Below are positions 12,871 through 18,800 of a stretch of 64,000 nucleotides of DNA, one piece after another (position 1 is the first letter of the stretch; every line of letters begins with the position of its first letter). The DNA comes from Phoronis australis (lineage: Eukaryota > Animalia > Phoronida). Below the pieces are notes generated by a model, which saw only the letters and a list, made by a program, of their open reading frames with translations, did not search any database and had not been told where the DNA came from. The stretch lies in NCBI GenBank assembly GCA_002633005.1, contig NMRA01000499.1, forward strand, positions 248,001-312,000, read 5' to 3'. A program made the translations under genes and the position numbers.

Positions 12871-15800
12871 CTGTGGGTGAAAAGAGGAAACATCAGTAAC
12901 GTCACATCGGTCTTTTTACAGCACCCATCTCTCTTGCAGTGACCAACTCTCCCATGCAGGCTCATAAATGATATAATTCTTTGACTATACAGGTTACTAT
13001 GATAATTTCAATTTGACTTTAAAATGTCAGCAAATCGTGGAGTCTTTCTGTGCATAAAGATAAACCTGAATAAGATGTTTCTCTATCACTTAGCCTAAGA
13101 AACAGAACCAAAGTTATAATAATAAATGGCTTTATCTTCCCAGTGACAAGGGCCTAAGTAATCCTTGGGACACAAAACAGCACTCTGACAGAAACAACAA
13201 AGCCAGTCATTCACTCACAGTCACAACACCGCACAAAATAGTCGAGTGCTTCAGATTGTGATCAGCCTCATAATGTGTTCCTTATAGGAGACTGCAGTTT
13301 GGAATCCTTACATGGAACCACCTCAGTCAGGAATCAGCACCATGTAAAGATATACATGATTGTAACTGTATACAATACGAGTAGGCTTCAGCAAGATAGC
13401 CAGTCAAATGCCAATGCACGTGGCAAATTACTTACGTTCAAGAAGTCAACTCCAAGGATGAGGAAGTGAAGCGACATGGAGAGCGTGATGGCGCCCAACA
13501 GCCAAACATTACACCAGGGTGGCATGGACAACAGTGACTGGTTCTCACTCAAGCTGAAATTACAGGGCAATGATAAGCATGAGAATGGGAGTCGATATAA
13601 CTGGAGCGATCGCGCGGGGTAATTGACGAATAGTGAAAGAATGCGTCAATGCTGGTCAAATGTGCTCAGCACTGCCTTGGTGTGTTCGTAAGAAGAAATG
13701 GAGAGTATAGAGTTACAAAGTCGACACCTGTTTAAGTACAGCCCACCCACCAACCTTCTGCTAAGAACAATGTAGCAATGGCTGGACAGCATCCATGTGA
13801 GTTGATGTAACATCATAGTAAACATAACTCAACTCCATTTAAGGAGTTCAATGGGGGAAAGTTTGAAAACATTTAGAGTATATCTGGATACAGCCCTACT
13901 ACATTGAACAAGAGAGTTGAGTTCCCGAGGGTGTGACCCGTGGCCATCAACTGTAATAAATAACACGTCACATTAACCTTTTGGGTTACTGCACCGACAC
14001 ACGACACAGTTATTGCGCAGCTGTATCATGGCATATGTAGTATAATAAGCACATGCGAAATAAGTTATGTTGCTTGAGCAACGCTGAACTTTGCTTATAG
14101 CTAATCAAAGAATACATTTACTTCAAAACTGGAGTATTAACAATATCGAGATATTCTTTAACTCATGAAACAAGAGAATAAGGTAAGAAAGATAAGTGTA
14201 TGAATGGTAACGAAATCATGTTGAAGGAGAGCTTGGCAGAAATGGAACAAATTTATGTGGGCGTAAAACATAAACTAGAATCCAGATGTGAGAACACAAG
14301 ATAATTGAATATCAAGGGGCAGTAAAGTGGAAACAATGTAGTTACCAAGCATTAAACCAAATCAAGTTGGAAAGCGAAAAACAACAAGACAAATAAATAT
14401 ATTGAGGGGCATGCGTGGAATCACTTAAGGGAAGTCGCTATGCCGCGGGTACTCTTTCTAGTCACAATATACATGAGGTTTGTTTAGTCGCTGCTATAAA
14501 GACAATGCTGAGACTGTCTTAAGAAGCGAGACCCATTTCGGGTGAGTAGCAACTATAGTCAATATGTTGGCATTACCTCAAGTGCGACATGCCAAAGCAA
14601 ACCATTAACTTTTTTGTTTTCTCCAAATGGCAGGATTACTAAAGTAACGTAGCAAAGTGGAATTTAAAACTGGGCACTCGGTTCACTCTCAACATGCATA
14701 AAATGCAGTTGATAATTAAAGAAGAATAAATAAGCTACATGAAACAGAAAAAAACGAACACAACATTCAACGACATTCCCGTCGGATGGGAGAGATTCGT
14801 CTCTCGCTCTGTCCATGTAGTTACGTGAGGATCAAGTCTCTGGTAGCGCAGGCTACATTCAGTACAAGCAGCAATGTAAGACGTCCACAAACATACATGA
14901 ATAAAGCTTTAAGCCTTAACACCTGTCAAAGCGCTTGGAGCAGGTCTCACATCCCCTACTACCTATGAGAAAGATTAAGACGTTGGACAGGCAATTTACT
15001 GACACAAAATACACATGCAAGGGCACTGATAAAATATGTCACGTCTGTTCTTGTCGTCGCAGTAATATGCCCAGTCTTGTGACGACTGAAGTGCAACGAT
15101 CCAGTGAACTGCATGCGCTTGTGCATCAGCCAGAATGTTGGAACTAAACACTTGGTCCTCACAACACAATTAACTAGTAACAAAGCCGACAGTCTAAACA
15201 GTGCAGTGCAAGATCTACTACTAATGCAGTGCCCCCTACCTGACTTAATCTACACCTAAATTAGAAATACTACCGACATTCACATCTACAGTTTTGAAAT
15301 CACAAAGTTCTATGAACAGCCATCAGAAACTAAGAAAATCCATTCCGTTGTCAAAACCTATTTGAATATAATAATTTCAGATAATCGTTCCATGCCATCA
15401 AAAGCTAATTTCTGACCTGTCTAAAATACCACAAGAATAAATGAAAAGTAATACTCTAAACCCACACTTAAAAACAAACTAAGCCAAACTGGTGAAAATA
15501 TCTAGACAGTCTAACCTGCTAACCTGTACAGTCTAACCTGTATAGTCTAACCTGCACAGTCTAACCTGCACAGTCTAACCTGCACAGTCTAACCTACACA
15601 GTCTAACCTACACCTGTCAATATTAGTAGCAATAGCAGCCAGTAGCGGACACCAGGCAGTGTCTTTAAACTACAGCATCAGCAGCAGCAGTTGTAGTAAA
15701 GTAGCAGTGCTAGTCTAGCCGTACTACCGACTACCCGCGACCACCAGAGACTTGCTCCCTACCTGTTGAGAGCATTCAACATCTCAATCACGACCAGCAC

Positions 15801-18800
15801 GGACAGAGCCATGGTCATGGGCTTGGGTGCGTCAAAGATCTCACAGTCGACGCCCTGAAACTTAGTCTCCTGTTGAGCTAGACACTGAGCCTGGTGGGTC
15901 TGCAACAGCCAACAGACGGTGACAACAGCGCGTGTGTGTGTGTGGACAGACAACATGATGTGCCATGTACGGGGTGGCCAGGAAAACTGGTCTCGTTCTA
16001 AGTGGCATGTCACCAGTGTCAGAGCCCATGCTGAGGACTGGTCATGTAGAATATGCTTAGCAGATTCAGACCAAATCAGATCAGTGAGCAAGGGGAAATG
16101 TGGCAATGAAGTGCATAACATTGGTAACCTGCCTCATACTACTGTAATGGCAACAAAATGTGTAGGTTTAACTTACTACAGTTAAGAGTTCTGTTGCATG
16201 TGGCAAACATACAAAAAACGAAGGTACCAGTGATAAGCCAACACAGGACGACCAGTTCTCCTCGCTTTACCCCCTCCCCCATCACTATACAACACAGATT
16301 GTTGTTTTACCTGTTCAATGCATTCAACATTTCTATGGTGACCAGCACAGAGAGTGCCATGGTCATGGGATGGGGACTGTCGAAGATCTCACAGTCAACC
16401 CCCTTGAAGTTGCTGGGCTCAGCGGCACACTGCATGTGATGTGTCTGCAAAACAAGTCTGAAGCATGCAAAACGTACACCGAATCAACTATCCAGGAATG
16501 CGACAACACCTGTTAATTGACGCTAGTCATGTGTTCTCTTTGATTTGCGACTTACGCCAATAAAAGCGGCTGGCTGTAATTAGTGTTCAACTCTGTAAAA
16601 CAGCAAAATATAGATTTCATCACAATGCTAGACGGTCTAATCTGAACAAAACTACTGTAACAGCTGCTGCTTGTTTCAATGCAACACTCATAAAATGACT
16701 CCCCTACTTATAGTTACACCCAGGTTACACATACCAGTTGGTAGTAGTTCAGTTGTGGACCACCAGGATAGACCATGAACCACCAGGCGGCAGCACCGAC
16801 CGTAGCAGCACCCACATACACTGGAACACAATAACAGACCCTAACAACACCAAGATGATATGGCAAGTTTTAAATGTTTAGAAATTCAAGCAACAAATGT
16901 TCGTCTGCAATGCCAACTAGGGTTTACTGTTTTCATATATAAAGATAACATATAACACCATCAACTAGTGCAACATCTGAGGTGAGGTCTCTGCAAGGTT
17001 TCTGTTCATCAGATAACTGCAGGCGTTTTCATGTGCTATTTTAGCAGACTTATTTGTGGCAGATTTAGAGAATTCGCTAAATTAAATGAACTTTAAATCG
17101 AAAATTGACAGACACATCATGGCAAACATGATGAATTTTGACCCAATGTATTAATAACGAGATAAGACTGTCATTGACTGCCTAGAAGAAAATTTCTTAG
17201 CGCAATTGAAGGTGCAATATACACAAGCCTTCATCAATTAATGCTATGACAATTATCCATTATCAAGAGATTCCAAACTCACCACCAATAGCCATATATC
17301 TGAAGAACAGCCATCCACTGATCAGGCCCTCCTTGGCGTTCCTAGGTGGCTTCTTCATAATGTCGAGGTCAGGAGGGTTGAAGCCAAGGGCAGTAGCCGG
17401 TAAACCATCGGTCACTAGGTTGACCCAGAGAAGTTGGACAGGGATGAGAGCCTCTGGCATGCCCAGCGCAGCCGTTAGGAAAATGCTACAGGAAGATACG
17501 ACAATGTCAGTGGGACACCTTTAACAAGTATTCAACAACTCCTTGATCAGGTCATAATTTAACAAACTTTTCTACATATACAAAGTGATGGGCTCACCAT
17601 AAATAGATAATGTGTCTCATTTGTATGACACATAAGCATCTGACAGAAATAACAACACCTCAACTCATCGTAACACAACTTTAATTTATTGCCCAGATTT
17701 TCCAGTTTACATAAAATAAAGCATAGCCATTATGTCTTCAACGTGAGCAATAAATTTTGGCTGATGAAGTTCTTAGAGATCACCACACTGTCAAGGAAGA
17801 ATTTGGTGCAGACAGTGGAGACATCAGCTGAAGTATTGGCTTCACAGCTATGATTACAGAGAGACAACAGGTGGCACTCCAAGTGATGACCAAGTTTGAC
17901 CAAGCATCCCAAATGATTCTAAATTAGGGGTCGAAAATATCAATAAGGACCCATTTTAGCAAACGACAGCACTTGAAGAGGCAGCACACAACACCTGTGT
18001 TTCAGGTAATTCAGTCCCCATAAAATGAAACATAACCAGCTAATGCGAACTTATGTCATCAAATTGAACGAACTATTTTGGCTGAGAACACAGCATCTAC
18101 AAAATAGCCCAGGATTAATCAAGCAGAAAGAGTTTCTTGCTTAACTAGTGTTGGCCCTTTACTCACCAGACCACCTCACCAATGTTGGACGAAATGAGGT
18201 AGCGGATGAACTGTTTCATGTTACTGTAGATGGCTCTGCCTTCCTCGACAGCAGCCACAATGGATGAAAAGTTATCGTCAGCAAGGACCATCTCTGAAGC
18301 AGACTTGGCCACGGCTGTACCAGAACCCATAGCGATACCAATCTCCGCCTTCTTCAAAGCCGGGGCATCATTCACACCATCACCAGTCTATAAGTTACAA
18401 GAGAGAGGACTTCATTTTACCACATAGTCGACAAATGTCAAAAAGTATGCTGGTTAAGCAAACTTGACTTCTGAATAAAACACTGTTTTAGGAAAACTAA
18501 AGTATGAAATGGAAGAGAAATATATGTGACAGGGAAACACTCAACAAACATTCAGTTATCCAAACTTATCATTTATGAACTTGTGACTTTCATATGCTTT
18601 GGTGAAGTAATAATCAGTTGCTCACCATAGCAGAGATTTCGCCTTCTCCCTGAAGAAACTCCACAATCTTACTTTTGTGCATAGGCTCGACACGAGCAAA
18701 GAGCCTGGCACGGATGCACGCCTCTCGCTGCTGTTCATGACTGAGGTCGTCAAACTCACGACCTGTGAAGGCAAGCCCCTCTGTCGACTCGTCTTCACCA

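Follow-up and report, generated by a model that had tools for sequence, protein, structure and literature searches.

An ancient pair of mutually exclusive exons for the luminal M7-M8 loop and helix M8 in the SERCA gene of Phoronis australis and its relatives

The SERCA Gene and Its Paired Loop Exons

The window, i.e., the whole stretch of DNA analyzed here, comprises 64,000 nucleotides (nt) of the phoronid Phoronis australis (assembly GCA_002633005.1, contig NMRA01000499.1, positions 248,001 to 312,000) and carries a gene encoding a SERCA (P2A Ca2+-ATPase) on its minus strand. The gene was mapped exon by exon by tblastn with a SERCA of Capitella and occupies window positions 12671..54520, counted from its start codon through the stop codon of the form with the long C-terminus. 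Its protein shares 83-84% identity with named SERCAs over about 880 residues, and the P-type motifs DKTGT, TGDGVND and PEGL are present in the exon translations. Four minus-strand exons are of concern here: a constitutive exon which ends the M7 region and whose donor feeds either of two alternatives (16735..16820, joined upstream in RNA by 16820-17283), the two alternatives themselves, exon A (16311..16444, 134 nt) and exon B (15763..15899, 137 nt), and the next constitutive exon as their common acceptor (13436..13553, with GT following 13436). An original prediction, made from the letters of the DNA alone, had described A and B as intact tandem copies with canonical splice sites, and their lengths, peptides, AG/GT flanks and common phase (0 to 2) were all confirmed.

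Exon A aligns without gaps to residues 871-914 of rabbit SERCA1a, whose numbering is used for all A/B positions; the pair thus encodes the luminal M7-M8 loop with Cys876 and Cys888 and helix M8 with Glu908. Structure matches of exon A were found exclusively with SERCA1/2. Exon A carries Met874, Cys876, Glu879, Cys888 and Glu908; exon B has Ala874, Gln879 and one extra loop residue and retains both Cys and Glu908. Over the 32 codons starting at the Phe preceding the second Cys, 28 encode the same residue in A and B and 11 of these differ synonymously, with a nonsynonymous divergence (dN) of 0.12 and a synonymous divergence (dS) of 1.23, and the best mutual match among the three introns around the exons had an E-value of 0.14. 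These values bear out the view of the original prediction that the duplication is old and not an artefact. A control is provided by the same gene: at 35079-36563 a 735-nt tandem with one SERCA exon is 99.3% identical including its introns and has an N at the join, and is most likely an assembly artefact. The A/B pair is unlike this duplicate, which argues against such an origin for it. As had also been predicted, inclusion of both exons or of neither shifts the frame: a stop follows 19 nt into B or 6 nt into the next exon, respectively, in both cases more than 100 nt ahead of the last junction.

Use of the Two Exons in RNA

Three stranded RNA runs of one study, of which about one fifth of each was read and which mostly matched the window at 99% or more, contained all four joints that the original prediction had named for exclusive use of A or B. 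Per run, the joint from the M7 exon to A (16444-16735) was covered by 21, 32 and 52 reads and that from A to the next exon (13553-16311) by 28, 23 and 51, while 0, 2 and 8 reads joined the M7 exon to B (15899-16735) and 4, 4 and 5 joined B to the next exon (13553-15763). Each alternative was therefore joined to both flanking exons, the M7-B joint being seen in two of the three runs. In total 207 of 230 joints fell to A and 23 to B, so that A, the major exon with about 90% of the joints, was used about nine times as often as B with about 10%. Neither A-to-B nor exon-skipping joints were listed in the three runs at a threshold of three reads from two starts within a run. Were B an independent cassette, at most two A-B joints would be expected in all three runs with a probability of about 0.009; decay of the frameshifted products could also explain the absence of both kinds of joint. 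The inference that a single SERCA gene swaps its luminal loop by splicing thus agrees with the mutually exclusive use seen in RNA.

Conservation of the Pair and Its Diagnostic Residues

Relatives were collected by two protein searches and three cluster look-ups, where at most 15 members appear per cluster, and 26 species were compared with one protein of each loop type picked per species. In 24 of the 26 species pairs from molluscs, flatworms, nemerteans and bryozoans the isoforms were identical outside the A/B exon and the C-terminus; the pairs of Biomphalaria and Macrostomum showed further differences elsewhere. The pairs range over gastropods, bivalves, Octopus, the nemertean Tubulanus, the bryozoan Watersipora, trematodes and Macrostomum. 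Automatic database annotation already contains both isoforms, without names. Nine gene models fuse the two exons, always with A first (two each of Echinococcus and Taenia, and Macrostomum, Batillaria, Sepia, Schistosoma margrebowiei and Mytilus coruscus), which means that at least nine database models are wrong at this place. Of 80 stretches retained from 444 confirmed ones in a metagenome scan, 14 had two copies of the exon and four had three or more.

For decapods, Hyalella, Antedon and sea cucumbers the isoforms were listed in part, and among those listed no second loop type was found; each species had one loop and a varying tail. An annelid-like SERCA paralogue (L079:5314-5447) has a single exon at this place, and the second SERCA genes of flatworms (P0042, P0117 and P0211) have one loop type each. 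A doubled segment in a sturgeon model proved to be an identical repeat and was rejected as an A/B pair.

Two positions separate the exons without exception. Position 874 is Met in 26/26 A exons and Ser or Ala in 25/25 B exons, and position 879 is Glu in 26/26 A and Gln in 25/25 B; Glu908 and the Cys876/Cys888 pair are kept in every one of these copies, as the original prediction had noted for the window. Since database isoforms were typed as A or B by residues 874 and 879 themselves, the independent test is the genomic order. The window together with 12 loci (L010 and L049 being excluded as near-copies of L009 and L048) gave 13 genomic pairs, and in all 13 the exon with Met874/Glu879 comes first and that with Ser or Ala874 and Gln879 second. 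Two other differences had been put forward from the window. The Cys spacing of 12 versus 13 is real there, but a spacing of 13 occurs in just two of 25 B exons (window and L009) and is thus lineage-specific. The exchange of Thr for Val at position 906, two residues before the Glu, holds as a tendency only, with Thr in 14/26 A and 1/25 B and Val in 8/26 A and 18/25 B. Both were consequently discarded as conserved A/B differences.

Some loci have more than two copies. Locus L037, which groups with annelids (support 0.91-0.95), has the constitutive exons through M7 and, after these, seven 134-nt copies among which no further SERCA exon is interspersed. Five copies were found in L073, five in L020 and at least three in L050; for these three loci the gene context, and for L037 the exon after the array, lies beyond the contig. 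The 17 copies tested (L037, L073 and L020) are free of stops, and in every comparison that yielded a dS value dN was the lower of the two. Array copies retain both Cys and Glu908, and in L037 and L073 the B type stands last. Judged by their sequences, some annelid-like lineages may have multiplied the A-type exon into arrays that would provide up to seven loop variants.

The two SERCA exons thus form a real and ancient pair that is used in a mutually exclusive manner and has been expanded in particular lineages; the depth of its conservation, the arrays and the predicted RNA helix described below go beyond the original prediction. We consider it probable that the gene splices in exactly one of two homologous loop/M8 exons, whose order is kept across several lophotrochozoan phyla, and that the swap likely retunes the response of the pump to Ca2+ and partners inside the endoplasmic reticulum (ER). 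A point against this reading is the similar share of B in the three RNA runs of the one study (7.5, 9.8, and 11.2%).

Predicted RNA Folding and the Choice of One Exon

A long-range helix is predicted over the splice donor of exon B. Its proximal arm, the first 39 nt of the intron after B (15724..15762, minus strand), pairs with a distal arm about 900 nt into the intron (14824..14865, minus strand) in a duplex of -51.4 kcal/mol. With a z of -6.7 on 20 shuffles this was the strongest of 75 sliding windows, while 16 other donors, placed by the nearest GT, gave values between +2.0 and -3.1 and the donor of A +0.8. The B-proximal arm is the sole predicted partner of the distal arm (z -6.2, against 0.1 and -0.1 for other introns). 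Two more minus-strand pairings are predicted from the single sequence of the window: a helix within the A-B intron (15955..16284; 16284-16232 with 16030-15955, z -3.5 and -5.1), and a pairing of 16194-16159 in this intron with a tandem repeat at 15601-15569 (15569..16194, z -5.9), which would loop out exon B. The repeat is part of a short tandem repeat (about 14 nt) downstream of exon B at 15505-15613, for which pairing with the A-B intron is predicted.

Predicted folding extends to other loci. In nine annelid-like loci the B-proximal intron would pair with a block 0.2-1.8 kilobases away; this helix has 28 pairs, with 231 cells paired, 20 unpaired and four pairs compensatory (counts with no formal covariation statistic), and a second conserved helix lies deeper in the same intron in 4/4 loci tested. 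The B-donor helix of the window is not homologous to the annelid-like one. With a 110-nt query z fell below -2.5 in 11/19 loci, including L037 and L073, and reached -2.3 in L017.

Within the first 100 nt after exon A, loci L011, L012, L014, L026, L033, L048 and L060 share a conserved element whose palindromic TGACGTCA core precedes TGCATG; a copy of this element is also present after exon B in L014 and L017. For the element after A no consistent pairing partner was found in seven loci, and the donors of the arrays had no shared pairing partner. Together with the exclusive pairing of the distal arm, these tests leave a docking/selector model of the Dscam type unsupported. As to a tissue-regulated muscle/non-muscle switch of the MBNL or Rbfox type, the motifs GCATG and YGCY, which we take to be tied to these regulators, showed no more than mild enrichment downstream of B (uncorrected p about 0.03).

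A may be the default exon, because the donor region of B is predicted to fold into the long-range intron helix, and products with both exons or neither would be removed by nonsense-mediated decay; we hold the chances for and against this as about even. A helix that damps B, combined with decay that clears wrong products, would be the likeliest mechanism of choice. Several observations speak against this mechanism. The 110-nt query was negative (z about 0 to -1.4) in six of 19 loci, namely three bryozoan-like loci, L002, L019 and L022, and also in the truncated L056. When restricted to the first 40 intron nt after B, significant pairing was obtained in just 3/18 loci, so that the window alone gives a clear case of predicted donor masking. 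Neither the window nor the loci tested revealed a competing docking/selector pairing of the Dscam/ATE1 type.

Exclusivity might not be built into splicing at all: A and B could be picked largely independently, with products containing both or neither destroyed by nonsense-mediated decay, and the helices would then set the ratio or be incidental. We regard this as a possibility of some weight, though not as the probable course. The early stops ahead of the last junction are what such a scheme calls for, with its 411 nt the A-B intron exceeds the length at which simple steric exclusion would operate, and the missing docking/selector competition fits as well. The strong predicted donor helix of the window and the predicted, covarying annelid-like helices, however, point to selection on pre-mRNA folding, and arrays of five to seven copies would presumably waste most transcripts if no active choice were made.

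Possible Functional Meaning of the A/B Difference

As regards what the swap may alter, position 879 corresponds to Asp878 of SERCA2a (aligned chains 870-913). In the portions of a study on the M7-M8 loop of SERCA2a that concern these residues, Asp878 is named among three acids through which regulation by luminal Ca2+ is reported to act, the mutant E877L/D878L/E883L is described as slowed in transport at intermediate luminal Ca2+, C875A is described as abolishing transport, and reports are said to disagree on how the luminal disulfide regulates SERCA isoforms (PMC11826342). Exon B usually lacks the Pro after 879 and mostly has Asp or Glu one or two residues on, where A has Pro. With the acid at the Asp878 position missing and new acids displaced by one or two residues, the sequence of B is compatible with a luminal Ca2+-responsive surface that would be reshaped while the transport site stays intact, a proposal for which we see roughly equal grounds to accept and to doubt. 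Two findings tell against it. Loop acids are not fewer in B overall (two to three in A, two to four in B) because of the Asp/Glu standing next to 879 where A has Pro, which counts against a simple loss of charge, and certain other, unnamed pumps likewise have Gln at 879. For the A and B isoforms of Pomacea, AlphaFold models had a mean predicted local distance difference test (pLDDT) score of 59 and 51, respectively, and were too poor for a comparison.

Alternatively, A and B may differ for the sake of luminal partners, oxidoreductases or the packing of M8 and not for luminal Ca2+ sensing, which we think rather unlikely. The loop holds the sole luminal Cys pair, on whose disulfide reports differ in the portions of PMC11826342 cited above; position 874, two residues before the first Cys, is equally diagnostic as 879, and the net acid count of B is, as stated, not lower. 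Yet of the two invariant changes one coincides exactly with a residue to which a part in the regulation by luminal Ca2+ has been ascribed, and both Cys are kept in every copy.

Origin of the Pair

Exon trees were calculated with FastTree, and a quick tree of 37 rows was built on 44 columns. The latter placed 16 B exons on one side of a branch (one change versus 11.0 in shuffles). Mainly because of the exon order and the residue signature, a single duplication in an early spiralian ancestor, in which B would have arisen from an A-like exon, appears likely from the sequences. By divergence times the pair would then be more than 500 million years old. The trees also contain evidence to the contrary: the support of the B clade was just 78, the B exon of Octopus fell outside the core B group, and in the approximately unbiased (AU) test A and B of the window as sisters were not rejected (p 0.38). 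The SERCA protein of the window joined none of the groups formed by molluscs, annelids and flatworms and was placed next to bryozoans with weak support (0.55).

Separate duplications of the exon in several phyla with convergent B copies are to be considered as well, and we deem them improbable. They would be in line with the weak tree support on 44 columns, the divergent bryozoan B exons, the 3' halves shared by A and B of Octopus and the ready duplication of the exon shown by the annelid-like arrays, but they would have to account for the same order and the same two diagnostic positions in 13/13 genomic pairs, for the nine fused models and for the clustering of B exons across phyla. That B is a leaky, neutral spare exon or the pair an assembly artefact is a very remote prospect and already largely refuted, since B, despite its share of only about 10% of the joints, is present in RNA, has dN well below dS both in the window and between orthologous B exons, is conserved across phyla, and the genuine assembly duplicate looks quite different. 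The transcripts with exon B and the orthologous second exons in several phyla are likewise what the original prediction led one to expect.

In cephalopods (Octopus P0041/P0066 and Sepia P0007) A and B share a Lys at the beginning of M8 in place of the Met found in most others, which suggests conversion between the copies.

Comparison with Known Systems

No description of the A/B pair was found in the full-text literature; older subscription work on scallop, Pinctada and Schistosoma was not covered by this search, and genome-wide exon catalogs could list the pair. In the sections of the reports on SERCA splicing at hand, splicing is described at or near the C-terminus only (PMC3527596, PMC6987452, PMC5840707). 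C-terminal splicing of the SERCA2a/2b type (vertebrate ATP2A2, Artemia, C. elegans and isoforms A-C of Pinctada fucata) likewise yields several pumps from one gene, and the gene of the window has a tail choice too. Unlike this type, which alters the tail only, it also exchanges an internal stretch in which the luminal Cys pair and Glu908 lie. All three cloned Pinctada isoforms contain exon A.

The closest analog is found in NALCN, where, according to the parts of the report that deal with exons 15a/15b and 31a/31b (PMC3557258), tandem duplicated, mutually exclusive exons of an ion-handling protein also have a fixed a-then-b order and one diagnostic residue, are kept in flatworms, molluscs and annelids, and have a monophyletic b copy. 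In NALCN the selectivity-filter residue itself is changed, whereas the SERCA pair leaves the ion ligand untouched and alters the regulatory loop; the NALCN pairs moreover extend to deuterostomes, whereas the second SERCA loop was not seen in the listed echinoderm and crustacean isoforms. Exons 7a/7b of ATE1 with their competing RNA structures (PMC7797038) and Dscam1-type arrays share with SERCA the use of homologous exons one at a time, long-range intronic pairing, which for SERCA is predicted, and multi-copy arrays. In contrast to these, SERCA has no competing docking/selector pair that was found, and its helix starts at or near the donor of the last exon; in contrast to Dscam1 its arrays are small and lie in a transport enzyme rather than a recognition molecule. 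The SERCA2a study, in the portions on the M7-M8 loop, deals with the same loop and Cys pair, and its Asp878 is the diagnostic position 879, but three acids were mutated jointly there, in a mammalian pump (PMC11826342), whereas the A/B pair exchanges Glu for Gln at this position in invertebrate pumps.

The internal swap across at least five phyla provides natural, selected variants of the one large luminal loop. Its role is disputed between luminal Ca2+ sensing and control by disulfide or partners, and isoform pairs which differ only here make the dispute directly testable. Studies on mollusc muscle and shell calcium and on flatworm SERCA have treated two pumps as one. The arrays of five to seven copies, if used, would represent an unusual exon-array diversification in a core transport enzyme. 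As a tentative wider view, which we put forward with reserve, the main SERCA of Spiralia may have been diversified by a cassette of more than 500 million years that swaps a Ca2+- and redox-responsive loop together with M8, as vertebrates did with three genes; in some annelids it could have grown into an array reminiscent of Dscam, with as many as seven working exons among which long-range RNA folding makes the choice, so that pumps of different cell types would be tuned to different levels of store Ca2+.

Further Features of the Window

The tail choice of the gene is a second, SERCA2a/2b-like one, between read-through to a long hydrophobic tail and splicing from donor 12753 to an alternative last coding exon with a short basic tail (9321..9355, minus strand). 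Loose read ends at 12753 numbered 6, 8 and 42 in the three runs, which suggests that the choice of tail varies among them. Coupling of B to the short tail was not evident, as the share of B stays at 7-11% over the same runs. Run X1 has contigs of a depth of about 16 at 14676-14837 and 13616-13787, within the intron that follows B, and the RNA runs have low intronic coverage there; a retained intron, an unannotated exon or DNA may be the source. A gap of 579 N at 44350-44928 lies beside a 15-nt tandem repeat. On the plus strand, frames at 4624-4839 and 61082-61381 presumably resemble exons of phosphoenolpyruvate mutase and GPAA1, respectively.

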